From the IMG/VR virus record IMGVR_UViG_2563366825_000016: a stretch of 35,712 nt of DNA, one strand, 5' to 3'. How positions within the stretch are numbered: the stretch's first letter is position 1; every line of letters starts with the position of its first letter. Position numbers and translations under genes: made by a program. The notes under the pieces were generated by a model. The model searched no databases. It saw only the letters and a list, made by a program, of their open reading frames with translations, and was not told where the DNA came from. The DNA comes from a virus. Its lineage: Duplodnaviria; Heunggongvirae; Uroviricota; Caudoviricetes. This document shows, piece after piece, positions 1,984-18,978 of the stretch.

Positions 1984-2005
1984 CTGATGATTTTGCTTTT
2001 CATGT

Positions 2006-2287: not shown

Positions 2288-2297
2288 TCAGTGGTTG

Positions 2298-2489
2298 TCA
2301 TACCTGGTCTCTCTCATCTGCTTCTGCTTTCGCCACCATCATTTCCAGCTTTTGTGAAAGGGATGTGGCTAACGTATGAAATTCTTCGTCTGTTTCTACT
2401 GGTATTGGCACAAACCTGACTCCAATTTGAGCAAGGCTATGTGCCATCTCAATACTCGTTCTTAACTCAACAGGAGATGCTTTGTGCAT
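2298..2489 (-). CDS. Hypothetical small acidic protein (63 aa)
   Basis: ORF preceded by GGGAGG about 6 nt upstream of ATG; position equivalent to lambda ea-region small genes. Confidence 0.5.
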   Translation of the reverse strand: MHKASPVELRTSIEMAHSLAQIGVRFVPIPVETDEEFHTLATSLSQKLEMMVAKAEADERDQV

Positions 2490-2640
2490 ACCGCCTCCCG
2501 TTTATTATTTATCTTCTCAGCCAGCCGCTGTGCTTTCAGGGGATTTCTGATAACAGAAAGGCCGGGAAATACCCAGCCTCGCTTTGTAACGGAGTAGACG
2601 AAAGTGATCGCGCCTACCCGGATATTATCGTGAGGATGCG

Positions 2641-4103: not shown

Positions 4104-4108
4104 CCGTT

Positions 4109-4405
4109 TTATACCTCTGAATCAATATCAACCTGGTGGCGGGCAATAGTTTCAACCATGTACCGGATGTGTTCTGCCATGCGTTCCTGAAACTCAACAT
4201 CGTCATCAAACGCACGGGTAATGGCTTTTTTGCTGGCCCCGTGGCGTTGCAAATGATCGATGCATAGCGATTCAAACAGGTGCTGGGGCAGGCCTTTTTC
4301 CATGTCGTCTGCCAGTTCTGCCTCTTTCTCTTCACGGGCGATCTGCTGGTAGTGACGCGCCCAGCTCTGAGCCTCAAGACGATCCTGAATGTAATAAGCG
4401 TTCAT
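4109..4405 (-). CDS. gam: Gam (RecBCD inhibitor), short 98-aa form
   Basis: [60 protein letters not shown]... matches the C-terminal 98 aa of lambda Gam; AGGAG about 5 nt upstream of ATG; the upstream sequence diverges so the long form is not encoded. Confidence 0.9.
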
Positions 4406-4480
4406 GGCTGAACTCCTGAAAATGGCTGTGAAAATATCGCCCGCGAAATGCCAGGCTGATTAGGAAAACAGGAAAGGGGA

Positions 4481-4687
4481 TTAGTGATTCAGGCCGTTAC
4501 CGCGTCCGTCGAGAAAAACTTCTACGAGCAAATCACGGGTATAAGTGCGCTCGATGCCGCGATGCAGATAAAGCCGTCCGCGTAAATTAGCTGATGCAGT
4601 CCAGGTACCATCTTTGTGTTTGACCAGCATTCCTGGCATGACCGCACCTCGATTAACGGTCTGCGTTCCGTAATGTTGATGAACCAT
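4481..4687 (-). CDS. Hypothetical small protein (kil/cIII position), 68 aa from internal ATG
   Basis: ORF 4481..4723 on track; AGGAG followed 7 nt later by ATG (MVHQHYGT...) supports start at 4687; function not recognised. Confidence 0.5.
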
Positions 4688-4892
4688 AAAAAACTCCTGC
4701 CCGTAAGCTGGGCTGCTGAACATATTGAGACTTCTGCGCGTATTCAGGCGGTGGATGGCCGCCGGTTGTCATAACTAAGTCGCCTCGTTGAAGCGACTGA
4801 GGTATGAAGTGTTGAGTTGATTTCAGCTGGTCACACCGACGTTCACGCGTCCGCTTCACCCCTCGCACTCCCCGGAGTCTGCTGAAATTCAA

Positions 4893-5130
4893 GCTGCGGA
4901 TCTAAGCGGTCATCGCAACGGTGAATCAGGTGGTTGCCGTATCGTTGTGTTGTTGCGATATGGTGATAATAGCTATTGCTATTGGTGATATCAATACTTA
5001 TCGCTATTGGCTGATGTGTTTTGATATTAAATGTTTGATAGCAAAAAGAATTAATTTTGTGACTTGCATCGCATAGCGATAACTGAAGCGGGGGTTATGG
5101 TGGTTTTTCGAACGGTTTGTGTGATGAGGG
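4893..5130 (-). promoter_or_regulatory. Putative leftward early promoter/operator region (pL/OL equivalent)
   Basis: About 240 bp without a convincing ORF between the cI operon terminator and the early-left genes; contains repeated GCTATTG(G) at 4972-4978, 4978-4985 and 5003-5010, and a palindrome ATCGCATAGCGAT near 5068-5080; the 9-mer TTGCTATTG also occurs in the cI-cro intergenic region. Confidence 0.45.
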
Positions 5131-5163
5131 GGAGGCAAAAGAAAACCCGGCACGGTGGCCGGG
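5131..5163 (-). terminator. Intrinsic terminator downstream of the cI-moron operon
   Basis: Hairpin CCCGGC-ACGGTG-GCCGGG at 5146-5163; on the minus strand it is followed by TTTTCTTTTG; sits 9 bp after the stop of the 310-aa gene. Confidence 0.5.
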
Positions 5164-5171
5164 TAGCATCA

Positions 5172-6104
5172 CTATTCGATTTTTTTAACCATGTAGTTAC
5201 GTCGTGATGTTCCTAATCTTTCATTGTGAATCTCAGAAACGCTTACTACGAGCGATATTCGTTCACCAACTTTATATTTACTTTGAATTTCTCCTAACAT
5301 ATCAATCGGATAAGAAGCCTTTATTTTTCCAAGCTCGCTTGCAATCTCCAATTTCCCGTACATGGATAAAATAGCAAGTTCGCCTGATATATGCTCATCC
5401 GGTAGCTGAATGACCTTCGTTAAAGCTAAGCGAGCATTCAGTTTTTTTATATCTTCTGAAGAAATTGACACTTGTCTGGTACCATCACTTAAAGGTCCAA
5501 TCCAAGTAAGATCAAAGTTAAGACTATATTTTTCGCACTCATTTATGATGTTTTTTAGGTTAGCTGTTGATTGCGAACCAATTTCGGCAATTTTAGCCGT
5601 GAATGTTTCTTCATCAATGGATGAGAGTAGTGCAAAAATCTCCTTAACAGCATGACTGGATACTGTTTCGATGAGCTCGCAAGAACCAGTAGAAAAAGTA
5701 ACACCTAACTTCGTCGAACCTGGACGCAAGTCTGCCAATCTCATGTCTAATGATTTTTTAACATCAATCGGCACACGACTAGAATCTTTCCCAGATCCAA
5801 GTCGGTAAACTGCTTTCTGTACAAGGGATGCGAGATTACCTGAAATTACAGATAGAATATCTAACGGAATAGACCCGAAATCGACCAAAACACCTTTTAA
5901 TCTCAACTCCATGAAATCACGTAAAGGATGTTGGTTATCGATTGCACGTTGTCTCTCTCGGAGATCGCTCAGATGGGAGTCAAGTGATCTAAATATAATG
6001 TCATCAGCAAATGATCTCCCCTTATTTTGAGCAAGCAGATCCACATCGCGTTGAATGAACGCAATTCGCTCCTTGAGGGAGTTGAATGTTTTTTCTTCGC
6101 TCAT
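5172..6104 (-). CDS. Unknown 310-aa protein, second gene of a two-gene module downstream of cI
   Basis: Long ORF; start ATG overlaps the stop of the upstream gene (ATGA, translational coupling); GAGGGT about 7 nt upstream; AT-rich relative to the lambda-like flanks; no domain recognised from sequence. Confidence 0.8.
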   Translation of the reverse strand: MSEEKTFNSLKERIAFIQRDVDLLAQNKGRSFADDIIFRSLDSHLSDLRERQRAIDNQHPLRDFMELRLKGVLVDFGSIPLDILSVISGNLASLVQKAVYRLGSGKDSSRVPIDVKKSLDMRLADLRPGSTKLGVTFSTGSCELIETVSSHAVKEIFALLSSIDEETFTAKIAEIGSQSTANLKNIINECEKYSLNFDLTWIGPLSDGTRQVSISSEDIKKLNARLALTKVIQLPDEHISGELAILSMYGKLEIASELGKIKASYPIDMLGEIQSKYKVGERISLVVSVSEIHNERLGTSRRNYMVKKIE

Positions 6105-6574
6105 AACATTACCCTCACGAGGCCTTTAGGATTCTCCTTCCGATCAAAACCAAACCACCCTCTCCAGTAACTTCGCCTTTCACTATAATCGATTTCTGGA
6201 TGATTTTCAGGCAGCAAAAGAACGTCAATGCTGTAGTTTTCTTTAATAAAATCTCTATTTAACAATGAGCTAACCAATGGCATCAGCGTGTTTGGCAAAG
6301 AGTTTAGGGCCAAATAATCGACGACCACGAGTATATCTATGTCATCAGGTTCAGGTTTCTCTGTAGTGAATGAACCATCGATCCACACTTCAGAGAAACA
6401 TAGACACTGCTGATTAACAAGTTTAAATTGCTCAATAAGCTGTATAAAATTACAGTATAGCATACTTCTTCTAACGGATTTTGGGAAGGTGTCGACACAA
6501 AGAGACTTGATGCCATCACTATCCATATCATGAAATCCTGCTGTAAGAAGAGGTGGGAAGCTAGGCTTTTCCAT
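6101..6574 (-). CDS. 157-aa protein with nucleotidyltransferase-fold-like motif, first gene of the two-gene module downstream of cI
   Basis: AAGGA RBS about 6 nt upstream of ATG; motif WIDGSFTTEKPEPDDIDILVVVD fits the pol-beta-type nucleotidyltransferase signature G[SG]-x9-13-DxD; located 81 bp downstream of the cI stop on the same strand. Confidence 0.8.
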   Translation of the reverse strand: MEKPSFPPLLTAGFHDMDSDGIKSLCVDTFPKSVRRSMLYCNFIQLIEQFKLVNQQCLCFSEVWIDGSFTTEKPEPDDIDILVVVDYLALNSLPNTLMPLVSSLLNRDFIKENYSIDVLLLPENHPEIDYSERRSYWRGWFGFDRKENPKGLVRVML

Positions 6575-6655
6575 CCTAAGTCCTTGTTTATGCCATATAG
6601 CGTTCTATTTAATATTCTTGAAAAGAGTGTGCCTTAAAAAGCTACAGGCTAATTA

Positions 6656-7348
6656 TTAACCATGCTTCCTGTACGTCTGCGGCATGCTCCCAATAACCTT
6701 ACCGAAGATGAACACCCGGTTCATCTCGTCTTTCTCGATCGGGTCCCACGGTGAGTAGCTCTTGTTATCAGAGATAACCAGTAGCTTATCTTTCATCATT
6801 TGCAGGCGCTTTACATGGGCTGTGTCGTCGTACAGAAACGCATAGATACCATCACCGTCGAAAGATTTAACCGTGATATCAACGAACAGCAGATCACCTG
6901 GTTCGATCGTTCCTGACATGCTGTCACCACGCACGTTAATGATGCGGATATTTTCCGCCTTCCTGCCATCGAACATGTGACGAGCATCGTCAAACGAGTA
7001 CTCAACCGAGCGTAGAACTTCTACAAACTCACGGTTGATTACACCCGGCCCGGCACTGACTTCTATATCAAGAACGTCAATTTTGAAGTATTTGGAATGG
7101 CTGACAGCAGGCTTCCCTGATTGTTGACCGTCATTTCTCATCGGGCCTATGCCTGATGAGAGCCATTCTGTTCGAACACCCAATGCATTAGCTATTTCAA
7201 CAATTTTTGTTGAGCCGCGCGCGTTGCCGCTTGTCAGTCTCCAGATTGTGGGTTGAGCTACGCCAGACGCCTTTGCAAGAGCGCCTTGAGACATTCCAGA
7301 TTGTTCCATCGCTAGGTTTAAGCGATCAGCAAGAGTTTCTTTTTTCAT
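6656..7348 (-). CDS. cI: CI-type prophage repressor (HTH + LexA-like S24 peptidase domain)
   Basis: N-terminal HTH (SQGALAKASGVAQPTIWRL); C-terminal autocleavage motifs VRGDSMSGTIEPGDLLFVD and HVKRL (Ser/Lys dyad); track start at 7384 is TTG, so I place the start at the ATG (MKKETLADRL) at 7348. Confidence 0.88.
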   Translation of the reverse strand: MKKETLADRLNLAMEQSGMSQGALAKASGVAQPTIWRLTSGNARGSTKIVEIANALGVRTEWLSSGIGPMRNDGQQSGKPAVSHSKYFKIDVLDIEVSAGPGVINREFVEVLRSVEYSFDDARHMFDGRKAENIRIINVRGDSMSGTIEPGDLLFVDITVKSFDGDGIYAFLYDDTAHVKRLQMMKDKLLVISDNKSYSPWDPIEKDEMNRVFIFGKVIGSMPQTYRKHG

Positions 7349-7458
7349 AAGTTTTAATTTATACGCTTGCGTATTGATGGTCAAAACATGTTTTGCTATT
7401 GCTTGGATTAATACGCATTGCTATTATTCATTCATTGCAATACCAATAGGAATTGATA
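7349..7458. promoter_or_regulatory. Divergent cI/cro promoter-operator region (OR/PRM/PR equivalent)
   Basis: Intergenic region between divergent repressor genes; inverted repeat ATACGC-TT-GCGTAT at 7361-7374; second ATACGCA at 7411-7417; TTGCTATTG at 7393-7401 and TTGCTATTA at 7418-7426. Confidence 0.6.
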
Positions 7459-7686
7459 ATGACAAATCAAACCATTCAACTCGCAATCAGTATTACAGGT
7501 AGTCAAAAACGACTGGCAGATCTATGCGGTGTAGCCCAACCCACTGTTTGGCGTTGGCTACACGGTGGCGGAATTGATGCCCGCTATGTAATGAAAATTG
7601 TCTCAGCCACTGGTGGAAAGATTAAACCAGCAGATATTCGTCCCGACCTCGCACCATTGTTTAACGCGAGTAATTCTGCCGCCTAA
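7459..7686 (+). CDS. cro: Cro-like HTH regulator (75 aa from the ATG)
   Basis: Small HTH protein (QKRLADLCGVAQPTVWRWL) divergent from cI; AGGA about 9 nt upstream of ATG at 7459. Confidence 0.8.
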   Translation: MTNQTIQLAISITGSQKRLADLCGVAQPTVWRWLHGGGIDARYVMKIVSATGGKIKPADIRPDLAPLFNASNSAA

Positions 7687-7710
7687 ACTGCGGCGTTAAC
7701 TGATAAGGCA

Positions 7711-8256
7711 ATGACTATGCAACCACTTACATACCAACAGACTAGCGGATTTATCCCGACTGCGGTGATAAATCGTTCTCAAATAAAACAGGTGCCAGGC
7801 CACGAAAAAATCCGTGATGCCATCCGCGCCTGGTCGGCTGTAGATAATCAGGATGTCGTTGCCGCACTCATTGTGAATGAGTATCGAGCACAGGGCGGCG
7901 GCACTATCGATTTTCCTGATGATGTCAGTCGTGCACGCCAGAAGCTGTTCCGCTTTCTCGATAACAAATTCGATTCTGAAAAATACCGAAATAACGTGCG
8001 TGAACTGACTCCAGCAATTCTGGCAGTACTACCGCTGAAATATCGCGGCCACCTGGTTGAGCAGGATAGCTTCATGGCTCGGCTGGCTGAAATGGAAAAG
8101 GAACTCAGTGAGGCAAAACAGGCTGTCATTCTCAACGCACCACGCCACCAGAAACTGAAGGAGATGAGTGAAGGCATTGTGTCGATGTTTCGTGTGGACC
8201 CGGATTTGGCTGGTCCATTAATGGCGATGGTGACCACCATGCTGGGGGCAATATGA
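7711..8256 (+). CDS. 181-aa protein in the cII position (possibly YdaT-like regulator)
   Basis: ORF starting 24 bp after cro; family assignment is from vague recollection only. Confidence 0.65.
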   Translation: MTMQPLTYQQTSGFIPTAVINRSQIKQVPGHEKIRDAIRAWSAVDNQDVVAALIVNEYRAQGGGTIDFPDDVSRARQKLFRFLDNKFDSEKYRNNVRELTPAILAVLPLKYRGHLVEQDSFMARLAEMEKELSEAKQAVILNAPRHQKLKEMSEGIVSMFRVDPDLAGPLMAMVTTMLGAI

Positions 8257-8342
8257 CAGGTTCAGAAATGGCGAAAGTCGGTCTGCGGGAACAGAACCGA
8301 CTTTCAGGTGCAAATCGTAACACACTCATTGCGGGAGGAATT

Positions 8343-9272
8343 ATGGCAAACACTGCTGAGATATTCAATTTTCCAGTGCCGGATGCGGCACAAAAGGAGC
8401 CGCGCGTGGCAGATCTCGATGATGGTTATACGCGCATTGCAAATGAGTTGCTGGAAGCTGTGATGCTGGCCGGATTAACACAGCACCAGCTTCTGGTCTT
8501 CCTGGCTGTCATGCGCAAAACATATGGCTTTAATAAAAAACTGGATTGGGTGAGCAACGAGCAACTGTCCGAATTGACCGGGATATTGCCGCACAAGTGT
8601 TCTGCTGCAAAAAGTGTTCTGGTAAAGCGTGGGATTTTGATTCAGAGCGGGCGGAATATCGGTATTAATAATGTGGTCAGTGAATGGGCAACATTACCCG
8701 AATCAGGTAAGAAAAATAAAGTTTACCTGAAAGAGGTAAATTTACCTGAATCAGGTAAGAAAAGTTTACCCAAATCAGGTAAAGGCGTTTACCCGAATCA
8801 GGTAAACACAAAAGACAAACTAACAAAAGACAATATAAAACCTTTTTCGTCCGAGAATTCTGGCGAATCCTCTGACCAACCAGAAAACGATCTTCCTGTG
8901 GTGAAACCAGATGCTGCAATTCAGAGCGGCAGCAAGTGGGGGACAGCAGAAGACCTGACCGCCGCAGAGTGGATGTTTGACATGGTGAAGACCATCGCGC
9001 CCTCAGCCAGAAAACCGAATTTTGCAGGGTGGGCTAACGATATCCGCCTGATGCGTGAACGTGACGGACGTAACCACCGCGACATGTGCGTGCTGTTCCG
9101 CTGGGCATGCCAGGACAACTTCTGGTCCGGTAACGTGCTGAGTCCGGCCAAACTCCGCGACAAGTGGACCCAGCTCGAAATCAACCGAAACAAGCAACAG
9201 GCTGGCGTGACAGCCGGCAAACCAAAACTCGACCTGACGAACACTGACTGGATTTACGGGGTGGATTTATGA
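8343..9272 (+). CDS. O: Replication initiator O (lambda O-like), start placed at MANTAEIFNF
   Basis: N-terminal region ...RVADLDDGYTRIANELLEAV...RKTYGFNK...ISEW resembles lambda O N-terminal domain; contains the ori iterons internally; GGAGG upstream of ATG at 8343. Confidence 0.85.
   Translation: MANTAEIFNFPVPDAAQKEPRVADLDDGYTRIANELLEAVMLAGLTQHQLLVFLAVMRKTYGFNKKLDWVSNEQLSELTGILPHKCSAAKSVLVKRGILIQSGRNIGINNVVSEWATLPESGKKNKVYLKEVNLPESGKKSLPKSGKGVYPNQVNTKDKLTKDNIKPFSSENSGESSDQPENDLPVVKPDAAIQSGSKWGTAEDLTAAEWMFDMVKTIAPSARKPNFAGWANDIRLMRERDGRNHRDMCVLFRWACQDNFWSGNVLSPAKLRDKWTQLEINRNKQQAGVTAGKPKLDLTNTDWIYGVDL
8695..8842. repeat. Origin of replication: four to five 18-19 bp iterons plus an AT-rich segment inside O
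   Basis: Direct repeats T(T)TACCCGAATCAGGTAA(G/A) at about 8695-8712, 8741-8759, 8765-8783, 8788-8806, plus a degenerate copy at 8722-8740, followed by the A/T-rich stretch CACAAAAGACAAACTAACAAAAGACAATATAAAACC. Confidence 0.8.
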
Positions 9273-9970
9273 AAAACATCGCCGCACAGATGATTAACTT
9301 TGACCGTGAGCAGATGCGTCGGATCGCCAACAACATGCCGGAACAGTACGACGAAAAGCCGCAGGTACAGCAGGTAGCGCAGATCATCAACGGTGTATTC
9401 AGCCAGTTGCTGGCAACTTTCCCTGCGAGCCTGGCTAACCGTGACCAGAACGAACTGAACGAAATTCGCCGCCAGTGGGTTCTGGCTTTCCGGGAAAACG
9501 GGATCACCACAATGGAACAGGTTAACGCTGGAATGCGCGTAGCCCGTCGGCAGAATCGACCATTCCTGCCATCACCCGGGCAGTTTGTCGCCTGGTGCCG
9601 GGAAGAAGCATCCGTTACCGCCGGGCTGCCAAACGCCAGCGAGCTGGTTGATATGGTTTACGAGTATTGCCGGAAGCGCGGGCTGTATCCGGATGCAGAG
9701 TCTTATCCGTGGAAATCAAACGCGCACTACTGGCTGGTTACCAACCTGTATCAGAACATGCGGGCCAATGCGTTGACTGACTCGGAATTACGGCGCAAGG
9801 CTGCCGATGAACTTGCCCATATGACTGCGAGAATTAACCGTGGTGAGGCTATACCTGAACCAGTAAAACAACTTCCTGTCATGGGCGGTAGACCTCTAAA
9901 TCGTGCACAGGCTCTGACGAAGATTGCAGAAATCAAAGCTAAGTTCGGACTGAAAGGAGCCAGTGTATGA
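9269..9970 (+). CDS. P: Replication protein P (helicase loader), 233 aa
   Basis: Length and sequence (MKNIAAQMINFDREQMRRIANNMPEQYDEKPQ...) match my recollection of lambda P; 4-bp overlap with O. Confidence 0.93.
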   Translation: MKNIAAQMINFDREQMRRIANNMPEQYDEKPQVQQVAQIINGVFSQLLATFPASLANRDQNELNEIRRQWVLAFRENGITTMEQVNAGMRVARRQNRPFLPSPGQFVAWCREEASVTAGLPNASELVDMVYEYCRKRGLYPDAESYPWKSNAHYWLVTNLYQNMRANALTDSELRRKAADELAHMTARINRGEAIPEPVKQLPVMGGRPLNRAQALTKIAEIKAKFGLKGASV

Positions 9971-10260
9971 CGGGAAAAGAAGCAATTATTCATTACCTGG
10001 GGACGCATAAGAGCTTCTGTGCGCAGGACGTTGCTGCGGTAACAGGCGCAACAGTAACCAGCATAAATCAGGCTGCGGCTAAAATGGCGCGGACAGGAAT
10101 CTTAGTTATTGATGGTAAGGTCTGGCGAACGGTGTATTACCGGTTCGCTACCAGGGAAGAACGGGAAGGAAAGGTGAGCACGAATCTGATTTTCAAGGAG
10201 TGTCGCCAGAGTGCCGCGATGAAGCGGGTGTTGGCATTTTATCGCGGCAATTTTCAATAG
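9967..10260 (+). CDS. ren: Ren exclusion protein, 97 aa
   Basis: MTGKEAIIHYLGTHKSFCAQDVAAVTGATVTSINQAAAKMARTGILVIDGKVWRTVYYRFATREEREGK... matches lambda Ren; overlaps the P stop. Confidence 0.9.
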   Translation: MTGKEAIIHYLGTHKSFCAQDVAAVTGATVTSINQAAAKMARTGILVIDGKVWRTVYYRFATREEREGKVSTNLIFKECRQSAAMKRVLAFYRGNFQ

Positions 10261-10297
10261 ACTATGTACATAAAAATATCATTTTTTTAATACATGT

Positions 10298-10489
10298 CTA
10301 ATTATTGGACGAAATTGGTTTTTGCTTTGGTTTAGTTAGCCTAGCAATCAAGCCAGAGGCAATAATGATGATCCAAGCAATTTGATGCAATGCTACTCCA
10401 ATATAAGAACCTTTATAGATAATAAAGGCATAGATCGCTAGAAACGAAATAAATATCCATAACGAAAGTTGATAAATTTTGGCGCGCAT
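10298..10489 (-). CDS. Small hydrophobic (2-TM) membrane protein, about 63 aa
   Basis: ORF with two hydrophobic stretches (LSLWIFISFLAIYAFIIY; IAWIIIIASGLIA); in an AT-rich segment; weak RBS; start at the ATG at 10489 rather than the track TTG. Confidence 0.4.
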   Translation of the reverse strand: MRAKIYQLSLWIFISFLAIYAFIIYKGSYIGVALHQIAWIIIIASGLIARLTKPKQKPISSNN

Positions 10490-10745
10490 ATTTAATCCAA
10501 TCAATCAGAAAGACGAGTAATCATAGAGGTACTATCACCCGGGTAACTATTGCTATTATGAACGGATAGGATAGAGGCTTCAATAACATATGCATCAAGT
10601 ATGATGGAATATGTAGGTGAAAATGACTTGTGTCAAATTTGTGGAAATGAGTACCATGTTTCTCTGAAATTGATGTCGTTAATGGCTAGTGATAGTGAAC
10701 TTTTTTACTTTATAATTCCTTTGGTTATAACAATAAGGTAAATTT

Positions 10746-11306
10746 ATGAAGAAGATAATATTATTAGCCATGATTATTGGTTCTTTAACAGGTTGCGCTA
10801 GTGTGCCACCATTGAATTTTTCAACACCTAACGTGGGAGTTAGCCAGAAAAAAATAGATGCTGAAATTAAGTCATTAACGGTATCACTTGCTCGTCCAGA
10901 TGAGCAGAAAGGGGATATCACTGCTGGTATGGAGGCTATAACTCCAATTTGGCGTGAATCTTTGCAGGAAGCACTCGACCGAATGACTATTTTTCGTGAT
11001 AGTTCACCAAATACGGTTAGCTTAAATGTTAAAGTGTTGGCTCTTGACGTTCCTGCTTTTGGTGTTTCAATGACAACTAAAGCAATTGCAAGGTATGAAA
11101 TAATCAACCGTGCGAATGGTGATATTATATATACGCAGGATATTGAGTCTACCGGTACTGTTCCAGCCAGTTACGCATTCTACGGTATTGTTCGAGCACG
11201 CGAATCTGTTAATCGCGCGGTGCAAAACAACATAACGCAGTTCTTGCAAGCATTAGAAAGTGTTGATCTTTCTCGTCCAATGTTTCCTGTTAGGGTAGCT
11301 AAATGA
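10746..11306 (+). CDS. Lipoprotein (186 aa) of unknown function
   Basis: Signal peptide with lipobox LTGC (MKKIILLAMIIGSLTGCAS); AT-rich; no domain recognised. Confidence 0.8.
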   Translation: MKKIILLAMIIGSLTGCASVPPLNFSTPNVGVSQKKIDAEIKSLTVSLARPDEQKGDITAGMEAITPIWRESLQEALDRMTIFRDSSPNTVSLNVKVLALDVPAFGVSMTTKAIARYEIINRANGDIIYTQDIESTGTVPASYAFYGIVRARESVNRAVQNNITQFLQALESVDLSRPMFPVRVAK

Positions 11307-11755
11307 AGCGATTATTCGTAATTGCTCCACTCTTAGTGTTGGTTGGATGCGCACAAAATATATCGCCAAATAGTTATTCTGTTGGCTCTGTGGGCATGGT
11401 TAATCGAACTATCGCTGGTACAGTTATTAGTGCTAGGGGGGTTGATATCAGTGGGACTTCCGCGTTAGGCGGGACTGCTGGGGCTGCCGTGGGGGCAACC
11501 GCTGGTTCTGCGCTTGGTGGGGGAGTTCGTTCTAATATCGTTGGTGCCGTTGGTGGTGCAGTCATTGGTGGTATTGCCGGGGCAGCAATCGAATCTTCAG
11601 CAACAAAACAAACAGGCATGGAATATGTTGTCGAAACTGAGAATGGGAATTTAATGACCATTGTTCAAGGCAAAGATCCGTTATTTACTCAAGGAAGTAA
11701 GGTCCTTGTTTTATACGGAAACCCTTCTCGCATAATAACAGACCCGCGTCACTAA
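11303..11755 (+). CDS. Glycine-zipper outer-membrane-type lipoprotein (150 aa)
   Basis: Lipobox LVGCAQ; long Gly/Ala-rich stretch GTSALGGTAGAAVGATAGSALGGG...GGAVIGGIAGAAI typical of glycine-zipper lipoproteins (SlyB / 17-kDa antigen type); 4-bp overlap with the preceding lipoprotein gene. Confidence 0.8.
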   Translation: MKRLFVIAPLLVLVGCAQNISPNSYSVGSVGMVNRTIAGTVISARGVDISGTSALGGTAGAAVGATAGSALGGGVRSNIVGAVGGAVIGGIAGAAIESSATKQTGMEYVVETENGNLMTIVQGKDPLFTQGSKVLVLYGNPSRIITDPRH

Positions 11756-11945
11756 CATACCTTTTGATTTTGTAAAATCAATTCGTAATAATAAAGTCAT
11801 CGGAGCTTGAACAACTCCGGTGACTTCTGCGCTAAACGGGGACGTTTATGCGCACATACAATCCAAACTCTCTTCTCCCTTCACAGATGCAGAAATGCAC
11901 CTGCGATTTTTTGCATCCAGCGTCTGACCTCTGCGGAGGTGAAGC

Positions 11946-12401
11946 GTGAACCTACCACAAGATGGCATCAAACTGCATCGCGGTAACTTCACCGCTATCG
12001 GCCAGCAGATCCAGCCTTATCTGGAGGACGGAAAATGCTTTCGCATGGTGCTTAAACCGTGGCGTGAGAAACGCAGTCTTTCCCAGAATGCACTCAGCCA
12101 CATGTGGTACAGCGAAATCAGTGAATACCTCATCAGCAGGGGGAAATCGTTCGCTACCGCAGCATGGGTAAAAGATGCTCTCAAACACACATACCTCGGT
12201 TATGAAACCAAGGACCTGGTTGATGTCGTAACCGGCGAAATCACTACTATCCAGTCGTTACGCCATACTTCCGATCTTGATACCGGAGAGATGTATGTCT
12301 TCCTGTGTAAGGTTGAAGCCTGGGCGATGAATATTGGCTGCCACCTGACTATTCCGCAGAGCTGCGAGTTCCAGCTGCTGCGCGACAAGCAGGAGGCGTA
12401 A
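11946..12401 (+). CDS. ybcN: YbcN-like nin-region protein (151 aa), GTG start
   Basis: Sequence matches my recollection of DLP12 YbcN; begins the nin-type gene block. Confidence 0.8.
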
Positions 12402-12571
12402 TGGCTACACCGCTTATTCGTGTCATGAACGGACACATCTACAGAGTACCAAATCGTCGTAAGCGTAAGCCTGAGCTGAAGCCATCCGAAATACCAACAC
12501 TGCTCGGATATACCGCTAGCCTGGTTGATAAAAAATGGTTGCGACTGGCAGCAAGGAGGAATCATGGCTGA
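12401..12571 (+). CDS. ninE: NinE-like small protein (56 aa)
   Basis: Not on the ORF track (under 60 aa); ATG overlaps the ybcN stop (TAATG); basic motif RRKRKP and C-terminal W..RL..AR resemble lambda NinE. Confidence 0.55.
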   Translation: MATPLIRVMNGHIYRVPNRRKRKPELKPSEIPTLLGYTASLVDKKWLRLAARRNHG

Positions 12572-12854
12572 TTTGAGAAAAGCAGCGCGTGGTCGGGAAT
12601 GCCAGGTAAGAATCACTGGCGTATGTAATGGCAACCCTGAAACGTCTGTACTGGCACATATCCGGCTGGCTGGATTGTGCGGCACCGGTATTAAACCGCC
12701 AGACCTTATTGCCACCATTGCCTGTTCTGCCTGTCACGACGAAATCGACCGCCGCACGCATTTTGTCGATGCTGAGTACGCAAAAGAATGCGCGCTGGAA
12801 GGTATGGCGAGAACGCAGGTTATCTGGCTGAAAGAGGGGGTAATCAAGGCGTGA
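12564..12854 (+). CDS. ybcO: YbcO-like DUF1364 protein (96 aa) with Cys cluster
   Basis: [42 protein letters not shown]...[11 protein letters not shown] matches my recollection of DLP12 YbcO; start at the internal ATG of the track ORF. Confidence 0.85.
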
Positions 12855-13213
12855 ATACTTACCACATCACACTACCCTGGCCTCCGAGCAATAACCGCTA
12901 TTACCGCCATAATCGCGGGCGCACACACATCAGCGCAGAAGGGCAGGCATACCGCGATAACGTCACCCGAATCATTAAAAACGCAATGCTGGATATCGGC
13001 CTGGCTATGCCAGTGAAAATCCGTATTGAGTGCCACATGCCGGATCGCCGTCGCCGTGACCTGGATAATCTGCAAAAGGCCGCTTTTGACGCACTCACCA
13101 AAGCAGGTTTCTGGCTGGATGATGCTCAGGTCGTTGATTACCGCGTTGTGAAGATGCCTGTTACCAAAGGTGGGAGGCTGGAACTGACCATCACCGAAAT
13201 GGGGAATGAATGA
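12851..13213 (+). CDS. rusA: RusA Holliday-junction resolvase (120 aa), GTG start overlapping the ybcO stop
   Basis: [37 protein letters not shown]...[28 protein letters not shown]... matches RusA. Confidence 0.9.
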
Positions 13214-13350
13214 TGTTTGAGTCTTATATGGCAGAGCGTCTTCGCCGCCGCTGGGTGCGCCTGCGCTTATATCGTTTTCCTGGTTCTGTTTTGACCGATT
13301 ACCGGATACTGAAGAATTACGCCAAAACCCTGACAGGAGCAGGAGTATGA
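13210..13350 (+). CDS. ylcG: YlcG-like small protein (46 aa)
   Basis: Not on the track (under 60 aa); ATG overlaps the rusA stop; translation [46 protein letters not shown]. Confidence 0.45.
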
Positions 13351-13435
13351 AGTCAGAGATAACAATCAACTAATACTATTTTGTTGATTTTTGCTTGTAA
13401 TTGGCGTTCTGGTCTGATTTTTGTGGAGTAAGTTG

Positions 13436-13819
13436 ATGCGTGATATTCAGATGGTTCTTGAGCGTTGGGGAGCGTGGGCGGCTAATAATCATGAAGATGT
13501 GACCTGGTCGTCCATTGCCGCCGGTTTTAAGGGATTAATTACTTCAAAAGTAAAATCTCGCCCGCAATGTTGTGACGATGACGCGATGATCATTTGCGGG
13601 TGCATGGCCCGTCTGAAAAAGAACAACAGCGATTTGCACGATTTATTAGTAGATTATTATGTAGTCGGTATGACATTCATGTCACTGGCAGGTAAGCATT
13701 GCTGCTCTGATGGTTATATCGGGAAAAGGTTACAGAAGGCTGAGGGTATAATTGAAGGGATGTTAATGGCATTAGATATCCGGTTAGAGATGGATATCGT
13801 TGTTAATAACTCTAATTAA
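13436..13819 (+). CDS. quuD: Late-gene antiterminator Q (QuuD-like, 127 aa)
   Basis: Cys-rich zinc-binding region ([18 protein letters not shown]...) and position upstream of the lysis genes; matches my recollection of DLP12 QuuD; ATG at 13436 preferred over the upstream TTG of the track ORF. Confidence 0.85.
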
Positions 13820-13840
13820 TATGCCAGTTGTTTACTAAAA

Positions 13841-13870
13841 GTTATTAAAAATGGGGCGTTGCAACGCCCC
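13841..13870 (-). terminator. Putative intrinsic terminator for the porin gene
   Basis: Hairpin GGGGCG-TTGCAA-CGCCCC at 13853-13870; on the minus strand it is followed by a U-run (complement of 13841-13852). Confidence 0.4.
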
Positions 13871-13958
13871 CAAAAATAAAGGGTAATATATAACAGAAGG
13901 TTTATATAGTTAGAAGCAAGGTTGTGCTCCTAAAGGAAGTGGCTTGAGGGAGCCACTT

Positions 13959-14000
13959 ATATGTTGGGGAGGCAAAGCCTCCCGCAACATATCTTTTTCG
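13959..14000 (+). terminator. Strong hairpin plus T-tract (plus-strand terminator between Q and the antisense porin gene)
   Basis: About 15-bp stem ATATGTTGGGGAGGC / GCCTCCC(G)CAACATAT with AAA loop, followed by CTTTTT on the plus strand. Confidence 0.45.
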
Positions 14001-14008
14001 TAATCAGA

Positions 14009-15106
14009 TTAGAACTGGTAAACCAGACCTACAGCAACGATGTCATCAGTGCTTACACCGAGTGCTTTAGTGAAGTCATTTTTGTCAAGCAGGTTGATTT
14101 TGTAATCAACGAAAGTAGACATATTTTTGTTGAAGTAATAGGTTGCACCTACATCAACATATTTGACTAAGTCCTGATCGCCCCATACTCCAAGATCCTT
14201 ACCTTTAGATTGCAGGTAAGCAACGGACGGACGCAGACCGAAATCGAACTGATATTGTGCAACAGCTTCGAAGTTTTGAGCTTTATTAGCAACGAAGTGA
14301 TCAGCAAATACAGTCATATTCTGGGTTTCAGAATAGGTAGTGGCCAGGTAAATGTTGTTAGCGTCATATTTCAGACCTGCGGCCCAAACTTCTGCATTTT
14401 TACCGGAAGCAAATACTTCAGGAAGAACTTTCCCTGCATTAACTTGAGTGTCGGTACGATCAGATTTCGCATAAGTTGCACCGATACCGAATCCTTCGTA
14501 TTCATAGGTAGCAGAGAAACCGAAGCCATCACCGTTACCTTCAGTGTAGTGATCGAAATCGCTACGATCGTTTTTGCCTTGGTACTGAGCAGCAAAGTTC
14601 AGACCATCAACCAGACCAAAGAAGTCGTTGTTACGATAGGTTGCAACACCAGTGGTACGACCAGTCATGAACACATCTGTTTGGGTCCAGGTATCGCCAC
14701 CGAATTCTGGCAGAACGTCAGTCCACGCACCGATGTCGTATGCTACACCGTAGTTACGGCCGTAATCGATTGAGCCGTAGTCACCGAATTTCAGGCCTGC
14801 AAATGCAAGACGGGTTTTGTCTTTGGAGGAACCTTGAGATTCAGCGCGGTTGCCTTTGAATTCATATTCCCACTGACCGAAACCAGTCAGCTGATCGTTG
14901 ATTTGGGTTTCACCTTTGAAGCCAAGACGGGCATAAGTAGTATCACCATCATCTGCATCATTAGAGGAGAAGTAGTGCTTAGCATTAACTTTCCCGTACA
15001 GATCCAGCTTGTTACTGTCTTTATTATAAATTTCAGCTGCCTGAGCAGACATCGCCATCAGTACTGATGCAGCTACAGCAGAAATTGCCACTGTTAATTT
15101 TTTCAT
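14009..15106 (-). CDS. nmpC: Outer membrane general porin (NmpC/OmpD-like), 365 aa, intact
   Basis: Signal peptide [29 protein letters not shown], typical porin beta-barrel sequence ending in the C-terminal ...VAVGLVYQF; uninterrupted ORF. Confidence 0.95.
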
Positions 15107-15534
15107 CGTGAGCCCTTTTTTTTGAACTATTATTAAAAAATGATGTCACTGCGCGATAAATATTCATCTAATCAATGTGATTATTTCAAGATGTAAGTTT
15201 TGGTTTCTCGTTTGATTTGTGAAGTAGATCTCTATTTTTATCTGAACTTTTTTCTATCGAATCCTATTTATAGCTCTTGGCTGAATAAAAATAAATCTAT
15301 TAGCCAATTTATATTAACGGCTGTTATTTATAAGTGCTCTATAATTTGAAGGTTCAATTTAAATCGGCTAAAAATAACACTGGAAATTATTTGTTGGTTA
15401 TTTGTTGAGATTTGCTTATGTATTTGTAGTGGTGTTTTCAATACTCGGTAGCATTCTCGCAAATATCATTTAGTGGTTTACGTACGTAAAAAATTGGTTA
15501 TGCTGTTAAGAGTGGTTACTTCGTCACACAGCTT

Positions 15535-15567
15535 AAACCCGCCGTCGAGCGGGTTTTTCCATTTTTT
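15535..15567 (+). terminator. Putative tR'-like terminator downstream of a late promoter (6S-RNA-type arrangement)
   Basis: Hairpin AAACCCGC-CGTCGA-GCGGGTTT followed by TTTCCATTTTTT, about 110 bp upstream of the holin start; the late promoter itself was not pinned down. Confidence 0.45.
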
Positions 15568-15975
15568 GAGTCTCGATATTAGCTGATAACCCAATACCTG
15601 AGTTATTCACTGACTCCGAGTCTGTTACGTTTCGTAGTATTCCCTCAATTTACACCCGCTTTGTCTGCGAGGTGGGGTTATGAAATCCATGGATAAGTTA
15701 ACAACGGGTGTCGCCTATGGCACCTCAGCAGGTAGTGCCGGGTACTGGTTTTTACAGCTGCTAGATAAAGTCACGCCCTCACTGCGTATTTTCATGAAAG
15801 GAGATCACTCAATAACTTCCATCGAGATCGGGTAATAACATTTGAACAGATCGCTGAATAACATCGATGGAGATCACTTTTGACTCATTTTGTTATTCAG
15901 TGATCTCCATCAATGTTATTGGAACTTCACAGGTGTGTTGATCTGTATCTTTTGCCATTCCGGTAAAGGATACCT

Positions 15976-17517
15976 ATGCCAACAGTTCCAATTTCTATGA
16001 GAAAACTTAAAGAAATTCTTAGGCTTAAATACGGTGTTGGACTCAGCCATCGACAAATTGGTCGTAGTCTTGCAATCTCCCCTTCCGTTGTATCCAGATA
16101 TGCTAATCGGGCGGCTCAACTTGGCATAAAGCAGTGGCCCTTACCTACAGGATGGGATGATACAAAACTAAAACATGCGTTCCTTCAGACCCAGGTTAAG
16201 ATGAAGAAGCACTCTCTGCCTGACTGGGCTACAGTACACCGGGAACTGCGTAATAAATGCGTGACGCTGCAGCTACTCTGGGAAGAATACTGTGAGCGTA
16301 ATCCAGGCGGTTTTTACAGCTATAACCATTACTGCCGGATGTACCGTGAATGGCTCAAAACCACTTCACCATCAATGCGTCAGGTACATAAAGCTGGCGA
16401 AAAACTTTTCGTTGATTACTGTGGACCTACCGTTGGCGTTACCGACCCTGAGACCGGAGAAATAAGAACTGCTCAGGTCATCGTAGCTGTTCTCGGGGCA
16501 TCAAGTTACACATGGGCAGAGGCCACCTGGTCTCAGCAGCTTGAAGACTGGGTGATGAGTCATGTTCGCTGCTTCCAGTGGTTGGGTGGCGTTCCTGAAC
16601 TTGTTGTTCCGGACAATCTGAAAAGCGCCACATCCAGGGCATGTAAGTATGATCCTGACGTTAACCCTACCTACCAGCAGATGCTTGAGCATTATAATGT
16701 CGCAGTTTTGCCTGCGCGGCCACGTAAACCGAAAGATAAAGCCAAAGCTGAAGTTGGCGTTCAGGTTGTTGAACGCTGGATCATGGCCCGAATCAGGCAT
16801 GAGATCTTCTACAGCCTTGCATCGCTTAATCAGCGCATTCGGGAGTTGCTGGAAAGACTGAATAACAAAATAATGCAGAAGTTGGGTTATTCACGTGCAG
16901 AACTCTTCATCCAGCTTGATAAACCCGCACTGAAGCCTCTTCCTGAAGCCAGTTACAGTTACACCCTGGTGAAGAAAGTCAGAGTTCATGCCGATTACCA
17001 CGTGGAAATCGACAAACATTACTACTCGGTTCCATGTTCGCTGTTAGGCCAGCAACTGGAAGCATGGATCTCCGGAGAACTGGTAAGACTCTTCAATCAG
17101 GGGCAGGAGGTTGCTGTGCACCCGCGCAAGCGTACTTATGGCTACAGTACCCGCAACGAGCACATGCCTGAAGCTCATCGACAGCATGCCACCTGGACGC
17201 CAGAGCGTCTTCTGGAATGGGCGGGGCACATAGGCAGTGAAACTCATAGTTATGTGCTTCATATACTGAACTCTCGTCCACATCCGGAACAAAGCTATCG
17301 CTTCTGCCTTGGACTCCTGAACCTTCATAAAAAATACAGTAAAGCCAGACTTAATGCAGCATGTGCAAGAGCTCTGAAAACAAAGGTATGGCGTCTGTCA
17401 GGTATTAAATCGATCCTGGAAAAAGGTCTGGATAAACAACCTGTTCAGGATCCAAAACCAGATCTGTTATCCACGATGGAACACGAAAACGTACGCGGCA
17501 GTGAGTATTACCACTGA
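15976..17517 (+). CDS. istA: IS21-family transposase IstA (513 aa)
   Basis: N-terminal HTH, DDE-type integrase core; AAGGA RBS; gene order istA-istB typical of the IS21 family. Confidence 0.93.
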   Translation: MPTVPISMRKLKEILRLKYGVGLSHRQIGRSLAISPSVVSRYANRAAQLGIKQWPLPTGWDDTKLKHAFLQTQVKMKKHSLPDWATVHRELRNKCVTLQLLWEEYCERNPGGFYSYNHYCRMYREWLKTTSPSMRQVHKAGEKLFVDYCGPTVGVTDPETGEIRTAQVIVAVLGASSYTWAEATWSQQLEDWVMSHVRCFQWLGGVPELVVPDNLKSATSRACKYDPDVNPTYQQMLEHYNVAVLPARPRKPKDKAKAEVGVQVVERWIMARIRHEIFYSLASLNQRIRELLERLNNKIMQKLGYSRAELFIQLDKPALKPLPEASYSYTLVKKVRVHADYHVEIDKHYYSVPCSLLGQQLEAWISGELVRLFNQGQEVAVHPRKRTYGYSTRNEHMPEAHRQHATWTPERLLEWAGHIGSETHSYVLHILNSRPHPEQSYRFCLGLLNLHKKYSKARLNAACARALKTKVWRLSGIKSILEKGLDKQPVQDPKPDLLSTMEHENVRGSEYYH

Positions 17518-17528
17518 TACGGGATCCA

Positions 17529-18278
17529 ATGATGAATCATCTTTACGAACAACTGACCGCACTTAAACTCACCGGCTTCCGTGATGCGCTTAAAAAGCAA
17601 CTTGCTCAGCCGGGCACATACCAGGAGCTGGGCTTCGAAGAACGCCTGTCATTACTGACAGCAGAAGAACTACCCTGCCGTGAAAACAGGAAGGCAGAGC
17701 GTCTGATCAAACATGCACGGTTCAGACTTAATGCTGAGTTATCAAAGCTGGATTATCGTAACAATAGAGGGCTGGACAGGGCCCTCATCCGTTCACTCAG
17801 TCAGGGAAACTGGTTAACCCTGAAACAAAATATTTTACTGACCGGGGCCACCGGCAGCGGTAAAACGTTCCTGGCATGTGCACTTGGTCATAATGCCTGC
17901 CGACAGGGATACAAGGTCTACTATTATCGCCTTAAAGCGCTGATGGAACAGTGCTATCAGGGGCATGCTGATGGAAGATACAGCAAACTTTTGACCAGGC
18001 TGAATAATAGCGATCTGCTGCTTCTGGATGACTGGGGGCTGGAACCTCTCTCATCAGAACAGCGTAGCGACCTGCTGGAAATAGTGGATCTGATGTACCA
18101 ACGAGGCTCAATCATCGTAGTGAGCCAGTTGCCGGTGGAAAACTGGTACAAAATGATCGGAGACTCCACACATGCGGATGCCATCCTAGATCGACTGGTT
18201 CATGGCAGTATCAAGATCGAACTTAAAGGAGAATCAATGCGGAAAATACAATCTCCGTTGACCGAAGGAGATCAGTGA
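17529..18278 (+). CDS. istB: IS21-family ATP-binding helper IstB (249 aa)
   Basis: Walker A motif GATGSGKT and Walker B LLLLDDWG; DnaC-like AAA+ protein immediately downstream of istA. Confidence 0.93.
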   Translation: MMNHLYEQLTALKLTGFRDALKKQLAQPGTYQELGFEERLSLLTAEELPCRENRKAERLIKHARFRLNAELSKLDYRNNRGLDRALIRSLSQGNWLTLKQNILLTGATGSGKTFLACALGHNACRQGYKVYYYRLKALMEQCYQGHADGRYSKLLTRLNNSDLLLLDDWGLEPLSSEQRSDLLEIVDLMYQRGSIIVVSQLPVENWYKMIGDSTHADAILDRLVHGSIKIELKGESMRKIQSPLTEGDQ

Positions 18279-18480
18279 AGGTAATTTAAAAACGGTTCTG
18301 TGAAAGTGACACGAACCGATCTCCATCGATGTTACTCACCGATCTCCTTCACGGTAATACGCACTCACAGTGGGCGGCAATTGGAGTGCTGGGTAGCCTG
18401 GTATTTGGCCTGCTGACGTACCTGACAAACCTTTATTTCAAGATTAAAGAAGATAAGCGTAAGGCTGCGAGAGGTGAATA

Positions 18481-18978
18481 ATGTCGCCATCATTACGCAA
18501 GGCTGTAGCAGCTGCTATTGGTGGTGGGGCTGTTGCCATAGCGTCTGTGCTCATCACTGGTCCGAGTGGTGACGATGGTCTGGAAGGTGTCAGCTACATA
18601 CCATATAAAGATATTGTTGGTGTATGGACTGTATGTCACGGGCATACAGGAAAAGACATCATGCTCGGTAAAACGTATACCAAAGCAGAATGCAAAGCAC
18701 TCTTGAATAAAGACCTTGCCACTGTCGCCAGACAAATTAACCCGTACATCAAAGTCGATATACCGGAAACAACGCGCGGCGCTCTTTACTCATTCGTTTA
18801 CAACGTGGGTGCTGGCAATTTCAGAACATCGACGCTTCTTCGCAAAATAAACCAGGGCGATATCAAAGGCGCATGTGATCAGCTACGTCGCTGGACATAT
18901 GCTGGCGGTAAGCAATGGAAAGGTCTCATGACTCGTCGTGAGATTGAGCGTGAAATCTGTTTGTGGGGTCAGCAATGA
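18481..18978 (+). CDS. rrrD: SAR endolysin (T4-lysozyme-like muramidase, phage-21 R type), 165 aa
   Basis: N-terminal signal-arrest-release segment [18 protein letters not shown] and catalytic E...D...T arrangement ([22 protein letters not shown]); matches my recollection of DLP12 RrrD / P21 R. Confidence 0.93.

Follow-up and report, generated by a model that had tools for sequence, protein, structure and literature searches.

How is a porin gene accommodated on the opposite strand between the late-gene antiterminator gene Q and the phage lysis genes, the interval in which the late promoter and its Q-utilization site (qut) must also be sought? We examined this locus in a 35,712-nucleotide stretch of viral DNA (Caudoviricetes; IMG/VR record IMGVR_UViG_2563366825_000016), which is referred to here in its full length as the window. 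We conclude, with a probability of about 0.9, that this locus represents a "moron," or lysogenic-conversion cassette, consisting of an nmpC/lc gene with its own promoter and terminator and lying antisense between Q and the late promoter, pR'. Publications since the 1980s have described the prophage porin nmpC/lc, its Q-lysis location, its own regulated promoter, and its IS5 lesion in K-12. The observation is confirmed but unremarkable, since this is a known porin that is intact in nearly half of the complete Escherichia coli genomes.

An intact porin gene beside an interrupted holin gene

We found an open reading frame on the minus strand at 14009 to 15106, in the gap between Q and the holin gene, that translates into 365 amino acids without internal stops or frameshifts. 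The Porin_1 profile (PF00267) covers the product from end to end (profile positions 1 to 337 of 337, E = 1.8e-156), its score of 526 bits exceeds the cut-off of 484 for the NCBIfam "porin OmpC" subfamily, and residues 24 to 365 align with solved OmpC, OmpK36, PhoE, and OmpF chains at E values of about 1e-135. The signal peptide would be cut between AQA and AE, leaving a mature part that begins at residue 24 with AEIYNK, and the protein ends in GLVYQF, with the C-terminal aromatic residue of the beta-barrel assembly signal. The similarity to these crystal-structure sequences implies a 16-stranded trimeric beta-barrel that would act as a diffusion pore. The reading frame and the Pfam and NCBIfam matches thus agree with the initial annotation, which had described a complete 365-residue general porin on the strand opposite to its neighbors. 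When compared with K-12 NmpC rebuilt without IS5, 362 of 365 residues are identical and 3 differ, and the reading frame is the DLP12/PA-2-type prophage porin NmpC/Lc. The K-12 gene is broken by IS5 after codon 346, so the earlier statement that an insertion sequence had inactivated nmpC in K-12, while the copy in the window is uninterrupted, was correct.

The porin gene had also been described as adjoining the holin gene and the lysis cassette. The holin gene does start at 15680, but its division by an insertion sequence had been overlooked. The 5' part of this gene, S (plus strand, 15680 to 15782), supplies codons 1 to 34 of a P21-type pinholin (PF04971, profile positions 1 to 30), and matches to intact essD/S end at 15782. 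ISEc12, a member of the IS21 family, occupies 15783 to 18363 on the plus strand inside S; it carries rve and IstB_IS21 domains (istA at 15976 to 17517 and istB at 17529 to 18278), has the ends TGCGTATT...AATACGCA, and is flanked by a 5-bp target duplication, CTCAC, at 15778 to 15782 and 18364 to 18368. The insertion shares 100% identity with annotated ISEc12 copies and conforms to the IS21 family. The 3' part of S follows on the plus strand at 18369 to 18481 (PF04971, profile positions 20 to 63) and is collinear with phage PhiR30_1, and the endolysin gene R lies at 18481 to 18978 on the same strand (PF00959). The lysis cassette is broken, because the insertion interrupts the holin 103 nucleotides into the gene, and this S-ISEc12 junction was found in 0 of 5,426 complete E. 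coli genomes.

The border of the module and the hairpins in the Q-porin spacer

To the left of the porin gene, Q (plus strand, 13436 to 13819) encodes a 127-residue late-gene antiterminator of the QuuD/phage-82/933W type (PF06530, E = 4e-53) that is 100% identical to K-12 QuuD. Its conserved core stops at codon 120 (nucleotide 13795), and the final seven codons are part of the downstream module. Similarity to the Q gene of Lambda_2E9 breaks off at 13795 and that to the Sakai Q gene at about 13768, and homology to Sakai restarts at 15476. The intervening segment is therefore present in some and absent from other phages that are otherwise homologous, with the sharp junctions that characterize a moron.

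A scan of 13300 to 16000 gave 5 terminator-like sites, compared to 1.8 +/- 1.3 in shuffled sequences. The porin transcript has a predicted intrinsic terminator at 13843 to 13870 on the minus strand, in which a GGGGCGU/ACGCCCC stem (13853 to 13859 paired with 13864 to 13870) encloses the loop UGCA (TGCA in the DNA) and is followed by AUUUUUAAUA. Its folding energy (dG) is -13.9, 0 of 200 shuffled sequences fold equally well, and among 11 relatives all 14 stem positions are invariant, with variation confined to the 4-nucleotide loop. A minus-strand terminator had been placed at 13841 to 13870; it exists, but the stem is limited to 13853 to 13870, and the wider range takes in the U-tract. On the plus strand, the strong hairpin with a T-tract that had been noted at 13959 to 14000 was recovered at 13959 to 13999 and is a likely terminator for transcripts leaving Q. 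Its stem-loop (13959 to 13992) has 15 pairs and one bulge (dG -22.7, z = -4.7), and CTTTTTC comes next. Among the relatives, one variable position is in the loop (13976) and one in the bulge (13984), G13967C displaces the bulge, and the T-tract after 13992 is shorter in four relatives. When read on the minus strand, the same hairpin is a structured piece of the porin 3' untranslated region (UTR) without a U-tract. The two predicted terminators are interleaved, with the plus-strand element nearer the porin gene and the minus-strand element nearer Q, and therefore Q-side transcripts and porin mRNA would share about 155 nucleotides of 3' ends that are perfectly complementary and highly structured. 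The Q stop codon lies 23 nucleotides past the end of the U-tract at 13843.

We infer that these hairpins insulate the porin gene, as their stems are conserved and experiments in K-12 are consistent with this role: an rrnB terminator inserted in the quuD-nmpC spacer had no effect, and read-through from the quuD side was below detection (PMC11677980). It is possible, if doubtful, that they serve mainly as stabilizers of the porin mRNA 3' UTR plus a terminator, having arrived with the cassette, and not as insulators against convergent transcription. The minus strand from 14008 to 13840 indeed forms four or five stacked hairpins and folds much better than shuffled sequences (z = -6 to -8), and the hairpin segment lies beyond the end of Q homology at 13795 and is therefore part of the porin module. 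However, only on the plus strand does a T-tract accompany the hairpin at 13959 to 13992, and service to minus-strand RNA alone would leave this unexplained. The stabilizer and insulator roles are not mutually exclusive.

The porin promoter and expression of the porin gene

The region from 15107 to 15680 is AT-rich, as had been described, and GC content dips to 29 to 30% over 15050 to 15500. A leftward porin promoter had been expected in this spacer, and its counterpart in K-12 DLP12, where a 2.4-kb block is 98.4% identical to the window, has been mapped there: 5' RACE places the start of the PnmpC transcript, a G, in the 199-bp segment preceding the start codon, and deletion of positions -199 to -1 abolishes promoter activity (PMC11677980). 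The corresponding segment of the window, which comprises the porin 5' UTR and the promoter region as delimited in K-12, is 15107 to 15305 on the minus strand and has 3 differences from K-12 in 199 positions. Candidate promoter elements in this segment are TTGAAA (15189 to 15184) and GAATAT (15165 to 15160), separated by an 18-nucleotide spacer, and the transcript may start at the G at 15154 or 15152. As to the autonomy of the cassette, its terminator is present and conserved here, and its promoter is known from the K-12 experiments only. In those experiments, PnmpC was active without prophage induction, with CRP as an activator, OmpR, IHF, and MprA as repressors, and RyhB as a further regulator (PMC11677980).

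Promoter prediction across 15107 to 15680 had been proposed as a check in the initial annotation. A consensus scan of this region gave no sigma-70-like site on either strand; pR' could be located by homology. PnmpC and pR' are both non-consensus.

We consider it improbable that the porin gene, though intact, is neither expressed nor of any consequence in the lysogen and is simply carried along by a prophage in decay. In favor of this view, the nmp mutant literature first described K-12 nmpC as quiescent; the region upstream of the porin gene has a high AT content (29 to 30% GC) of the kind typical of H-NS-silenced DNA; and prophage damage is already present in S. In contrast, the nearly identical promoter region of K-12 yields a readily detected transcript in uninduced cells (PMC11677980). 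In addition, the reading frame is intact in all nine virion-derived relatives examined, at 15% nucleotide divergence, which argues for selection on the protein. The porin would be expected to alter the surface of the lysogen, and a role of Lc in superinfection exclusion is described in the PA-2 literature of the 1970s and 1980s.

A further reading, to which we give little credence, is that porin transcription in the lysogen, through read-through of the porin terminator that would enter Q in antisense, damps leaky Q expression and helps to keep the late genes off, like the lambda paQ antisense RNA. If so, the cargo gene would be part of the lysogeny lock.

The late promoter lies beyond the porin gene

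We found a late promoter, pR', on the plus strand at 15477 to 15504, with a -35 element TTTACG (15477 to 15482), a 16-nucleotide spacer, and a -10 element TATGCT (15499 to 15504). It lines up column for column with the 933W feature annotated as "pR'; putative late promoter" (positions 702 to 729 of the 933W locus, L014), and from its position the transcript would start near 15511. The counterpart of the 933W feature "qut; putative Q-utilization" (L014 743 to 750) aligns at 15518 to 15525 on the plus strand and falls in the early transcribed region, at +8 to +15. The pR' leader hairpin (plus strand, 15535 to 15567) begins at about +25 and consists of 8 pairs (15535 to 15556) followed by TTCCATTTTTT up to 15567; it is homologous to the first "possible rho-independent terminator" of 933W (L014 762 to 784), with the stem kept and a different loop. 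As a whole, 15477 to 15559 matches the annotated 933W promoter, qut, and terminator and the pR' block of VT2-Sakai, and the 83-nucleotide pR' block is 77% identical to that of Sakai (E = 5e-14). This homology substantiates two earlier proposals, that the late promoter and Q-utilization site lie within the AT-rich porin-holin spacer and that a tR'-like hairpin with a T-run is present at 15535 to 15567. The cognate late promoter, qut, and downstream terminator of a Q system are thus present, as identified by homology only, and Q probably acts at this pR'.

No other terminator-like site lies between pR' and S, which makes the hairpin at 15535 to 15567 the candidate tR'. A G15551T change in 4 of 10 related phages breaks one pair of its stem. 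In VT2-Sakai, the pR' start has been mapped by dRNA-seq 258 nucleotides ahead of tR', and Term-seq places the 3' end of the transcript at +258, beyond the first hairpin (PMC7547250). The homologous Sakai hairpin must be leaky, given this 3' end, and the assignment of 15535 to 15567 as tR' is therefore only that of a candidate. The pause of the phage-82 type is at +25 (PMC3326312), a position that would coincide with the base of the leader hairpin here. An Rfam scan gave only two sub-threshold matches at chance level, one to Trp_leader at 15440 to 15562 (E = 0.52) and one to a snoRNA model.

It is very hard to credit that the late promoter and qut instead follow Q directly (13820 to 13960), with the hairpin at 13959 to 13999 as tR' and Q-modified polymerase crossing the porin gene antisense. 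In favor of this arrangement, pR' abuts Q in lambda and in 933W and other Stx phages, and the hairpin is correctly oriented and followed by a T-tract. Against it, 13820 to 13960 contained no promoter-like site in the consensus scan, sequence comparison found no significant similarity between the Q-porin spacer and the pR' regions of Sakai or Lambda_2E9, and a clear homologue of the 933W/Sakai pR'-qut-terminator segment at 15477 to 15559 is co-conserved with Q. For annotation, this means that a DLP12-type late promoter sits after the porin cassette and not beside Q.

Under the moron reading, host RNA polymerase in the lysogen would transcribe the porin gene leftward from PnmpC under host regulators, with no need for Q, and this transcript would stop at the terminator at 13870 to 13853, just before Q. 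To the right of the cassette, pR' would fire rightward, back to back with PnmpC and about 360 bp from it, and late transcription therefore need not cross the porin gene head-on. Without Q, a short pR' transcript would end at the hairpin at 15535 to 15567; if Q is loaded at the promoter-proximal pause, transcription would continue into S-R-Rz and the morphogenesis genes. The only convergent traffic would be read-out from Q, which would be met by the plus-strand hairpin and T-tract at 13959 to 13999. Termination at the pR' leader hairpin and at the two hairpins separating Q from the porin gene is predicted. Weighing against this reading are the Sakai 3' end at +258, the G15551T change in the leader hairpin, the shortened T-tract after 13992 in four relatives, and the lack of a sigma-70-like site in the scan of 15107 to 15680.

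Distribution and conservation of the locus

The isolated phage PhiR30_1 matches the Q-porin-pR'-S block with 100% identity. More than 30 lambdoid phage isolates match it with 90 to 99% identity, and in all of these the porin reading frame is intact, at 360 or 365 amino acids. The block is also found in K-12 DLP12, in phage 434B, and in 2,386 of 5,426 complete E. coli genomes, and the porin coding sequence alone is found in 2,465. An intact copy of nmpC is the norm and does not distinguish the present sequence. Among 11 relatives, 95.8% of positions are invariant in Q and 94.8% in the pR' block (15471 to 15567), compared to 79.8% in the porin coding sequence and 76 to 81% in the flanking spacers. 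Within a control region that is otherwise nearly invariant, variation peaks in the porin, which fits a surface protein under diversifying pressure.

Comparison with known systems

The quuD-nmpC-essD segment of K-12 DLP12 (qsr') is the same type of locus, with the same gene order and strands and an identical pR' block, and the intD integrase gene is found at the left end of the window. In DLP12, the porin gene is split by IS5 and the lysis genes are intact, whereas the window has an intact porin gene and a holin gene split by ISEc12. Decay has thus run opposite to that in K-12, with the cargo retained and the holin destroyed. Furthermore, DLP12 lacks morphogenesis genes, while the window keeps 17 kb of late genes that are collinear with PhiR30_1 (97.8% identical). 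The lc gene of the lambdoid phage PA-2 likewise encodes a porin, lies in the interval from Q to S, and is expressed from the prophage (lysogenic conversion). Blasband et al., in the Schnaitman laboratory, reportedly treated nmpC and lc together as phage porin genes in 1986 (cited in PMC11677980).

Lambda_2E9-type phages share the Q core, with the junction at Q codon 120, and have antisense outer-membrane cargo right after Q. However, that cargo is the lipocalin Blc, the post-Q region is non-homologous, and the core of the window-type pR' leader, AAGAGTGGTTAC, has no match in 6.4 kb of Lambda_2E9. We considered Lambda_2E9 as a porin-less ancestor of the present arrangement and rejected it, as it combines the same Q core with other cargo and an unrelated post-Q region.

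The 933W and VT2-Sakai phages have a Q of the same family, with about 75 to 77% nucleotide identity over the Q core, and a homologous pR', putative qut, and first hairpin, and the late-control region carries cargo in both these phages and the window. In the Stx phages, Q is longer and its 3' end overlaps pR', and the cargo (tRNAs and stx) follows pR' in the same orientation and is Q dependent. In the window, by contrast, the cargo precedes pR', is encoded on the other strand, and would be Q independent. Just upstream of pR', at 15444 to 15476, the alignment also weakly suggests that part of the longer Q tail of the 933W type has been retained.

Identity and distribution of the porin gene

The window is a lambda-like prophage with an intD integrase at its left end that is the same as that of the K-12 prophage DLP12. 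To the right of the integrase come the early region, the nin region, Q, the lysis genes, and then lambda-type head and tail genes that occupy 17 kb. Between Q (13436 to 13819, plus strand; PF06530, E = 4e-53) and the start of the P21-type holin gene S (15680, plus strand), the initial annotation had placed an intact general porin gene on the opposite strand, and this observation was confirmed. The 365-amino-acid ORF at 14009 to 15106 (minus strand) is a complete general porin, which matches Pfam Porin_1 from end to end (E = 1.8e-156), scores above the NCBIfam OmpC-subfamily cutoff, aligns over residues 24 to 365 with crystallized OmpC, OmpK36, PhoE, and OmpF, and has both a signal peptide and a C-terminal end of VYQF. 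The initial annotation described the K-12 counterpart as inactivated by an insertion sequence, and IS5 indeed had to be removed before K-12 NmpC could be compared; the two proteins then differ at 3 of 365 residues. The window Q is 100% identical to QuuD, the Q of DLP12, and the 2.4-kb block as a whole is 98.4% identical to DLP12. The isolated phage PhiR30_1 carries the block at 100% identity, as do more than 30 other lambdoid phages at 90 to 99%, among them 434B, which acquired it from DLP12.

When 5,426 complete E. coli genomes were searched, 2,386 had the block at a query coverage of 80% or more; with the porin coding sequence alone as the query, the number at this coverage was 2,465. Copy state was judged on an evenly spaced sample of the genome ranking for the porin coding sequence, in which full-length, single-piece copies are the rule and K-12 derivatives are truncated exceptions. 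Because most sampled genomes have full-length copies and all nine phage genomes aligned have an intact ORF of 360 or 365 amino acids, an uninterrupted porin is the normal state, and the intact copy here is the usual condition. The earlier interpretation of the porin gene was essentially right, and the gene itself is a textbook case of prophage cargo, with an anatomy, regulation, and distribution that were known before. In the lambdoid phage PA-2, the Lc porin has reportedly been described as a lysogenic conversion that lowers OmpC, the receptor of the phage. The nin region of the window also contains two plus-strand lipoprotein genes (10746 to 11755), one of the YajG family (10746 to 11306) and one encoding a glycine-rich protein of 150 amino acids (11303 to 11755) that is labeled "outer membrane lipoprotein" in PhiR30_1; both are candidates for further lysogenic-conversion cargo.

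Position of the late promoter

In lambda, the late promoter pR' adjoins Q. A similar arrangement was first suspected here, with pR' next to Q, the hairpin at 13959 to 13999 as tR' (the terminator in the pR' leader), and late transcription running antisense through the porin gene, but it was dropped in view of the pR' homology at 15476 to 15558. Phages VT2-Sakai and 933W have a Q related to that of the window (~76% nucleotide identity), and the sequence just after Q in these phages is homologous to window positions 15476 to 15558 (83 nt, 77% identical, E = 5e-14), while 13780 to 14020, which takes in the Q-porin spacer, has no significant similarity to this post-Q sequence. The 933W reference record annotates a putative late promoter pR', a putative Q-utilization site (qut), and a possible rho-independent terminator, whose counterparts on the plus strand of the window align at 15477 to 15504, 15518 to 15525, and ~15537 to 15559, respectively. 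The pR' elements are a -35 of TTTACG (15477 to 15482) and a -10 of TATGCT (15499 to 15504), separated by 16 nt. In Sakai, the pR' start was mapped by dRNA-seq and the 3' end of the short transcript by Term-seq (PMC7547250); transferred by alignment, the late start here would be at about 15511. An 82-type sigma-dependent pause occurs at +25 (PMC3326312), a position that by analogy would coincide with the foot of the leader hairpin (15535 to 15556). Thus, by homology, the late promoter and putative qut lie in the porin-holin spacer, as proposed, and this region is AT rich, with GC content falling to 29 to 30%.

In an 11-sequence alignment of the window, K-12, and nine phages, invariant columns make up 95.8% of Q and 94.8% of the pR' block (15471 to 15567), versus 79.8% of the porin coding sequence, 76% of 15306 to 15470, and 81% of 15568 to 15679. 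The activator Q and this 97-nt pR' block are conserved jointly, whereas the intervening cargo drifts or is exchanged, and this joint constancy gives independent support for the placement of pR'. Across related phages, no part of the region varies more than the porin coding sequence (85 to 99% identity), a pattern that suggests allele exchange or diversifying selection. Between the leader hairpin and the S start, seven of the nine phages have a 17-nt insertion (at 15632/15633) that is absent from the window, K-12, PhiR30_1, and PhiR70_1. We also noted short matches (~90 to 94% identical) to the Q 5' end and pR' leader in OM284015.1 (Elizabethkingia phage EKP1); such matches are odd for a Bacteroidota host at that distance from E. 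coli, and contamination or chimeric assembly of the record may explain them.

Module boundaries, terminators, and porin expression

Homology of Q to phage Lambda_2E9 ends at 13795 and the Sakai nucleotide match at ~13768; at the protein level, divergence from Sakai begins directly after RLEMD at codon 120, beyond which the tails of 7, 5, and 24 residues in the three phages are unrelated. Since homology to Sakai starts again only at ~15476, the insertion between the Q core and pR' is, by these comparisons, a single module made up of the porin cassette plus the final seven codons of Q. Behind the same Q core, the window has the porin module, whereas Lambda_2E9 has an antisense Blc lipocalin module and Sakai and 933W have a longer Q tail overlapping pR', so that modules seem to have been joined repeatedly at 13795/13796, within the 3' end of Q. 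Q and the porin gene are convergent. In the predicted geometry, pR' and the porin promoter (PnmpC in K-12) would lie back to back ~360 bp apart, and late transcription would begin downstream of the porin cassette.

All three hairpins named in the initial annotation were located by terminator scanning and folding. The predicted minus-strand terminator (13853 to 13870, GGGGCGT-TGCA-ACGCCCC) is followed on the same strand by AUUUUUAAUA, and all of its substitutions in the 11-sequence alignment are confined to the 4-nt loop. The plus-strand hairpin at 13959 to 13992 contains 15 pairs interrupted by a single bulge (dG, -22.7; z = -4.7), with CTTTTTC after it; its substitutions fall in the loop or the bulged G, and G13967C merely shifts the bulge. 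The entire porin 3' untranslated region folds much better than shuffled sequences (z = -6 to -8), and the scan of 13300 to 16000 gave 5 terminator-like sites compared to 1.8 ± 1.3 in shuffles. The two predicted terminators of the Q-porin spacer are interleaved, and each is unidirectional. The Q-side transcript (ending at ~13998) and the porin transcript (ending at ~13845) would overlap by ~155 nt. An antisense effect of porin transcription on Q, by way of this interleaving, is conceivable but unlikely. In K-12, a strong terminator inserted in the nmpC/quuD spacer caused no change, which the authors put down to existing intrinsic terminators (PMC11677980).

The plus-strand leader hairpin (15535 to 15556) is followed by TTCCATTTTTT and retains its stem, with a changed loop, in the 933W counterpart. 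Two observations bear on a strict terminator role. G15551T, which 4 of 10 related phages carry, disrupts pairing between C15540 and G15551 and counts against such a role; it could also change how much basal transcription reads through into the lysis genes. In Sakai, the pR' transcript was mapped to end at +258, past the first hairpin, the homologue of the one here (PMC7547250), which by analogy would also argue against it. Our scan of the window found no second terminator-like site between pR' and S.

The K-12 nmpC promoter lies within the 199 bp that precede the start codon, is activated by CRP and repressed by OmpR, IHF, and MprA, and 5' RACE in uninduced cells recovered the previously reported G start; RyhB also acts on nmpC (PMC11677980). 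Over this stretch, 3 positions differ between the window and K-12. A plausible porin promoter comprises TTGAAA (15189 to 15184), an 18-nt spacer, and GAATAT (15165 to 15160), with a start at G 15154 or 15152; the consensus promoter scan did not flag this candidate.

Interruption of the holin gene

Matches to intact S end at 15782 and restart at 18364, an interruption overlooked in the initial annotation. The intervening 2,581 bp (15783 to 18363) are ISEc12, an IS21-family element that carries istA and istB, has the ends TGCGTATT...AATACGCA, and lies between the two copies of a 5-bp target duplication, CTCAC (15778 to 15782 and 18364 to 18368). S is split after codon 34 and is broken; otherwise, the late region aligns collinearly and in one piece with PhiR30_1. 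This copy is the mirror image of DLP12, whose lysis genes are intact and whose porin gene is inactivated. A search of the 5,426 complete E. coli genomes for the ISEc12/S junction found it in none. OkiPb01716 and 13E0767, the complete genomes closest to the window, match positions 1 to 13400 of the window at 100% identity; they have no ISEc12 in S and carry an extra IS3 (6162 to 7324 of the OkiPb01716 record, L016), which lies in the counterpart of the window's early region and is absent from the window. Sibling prophages have been struck by different insertion sequences.
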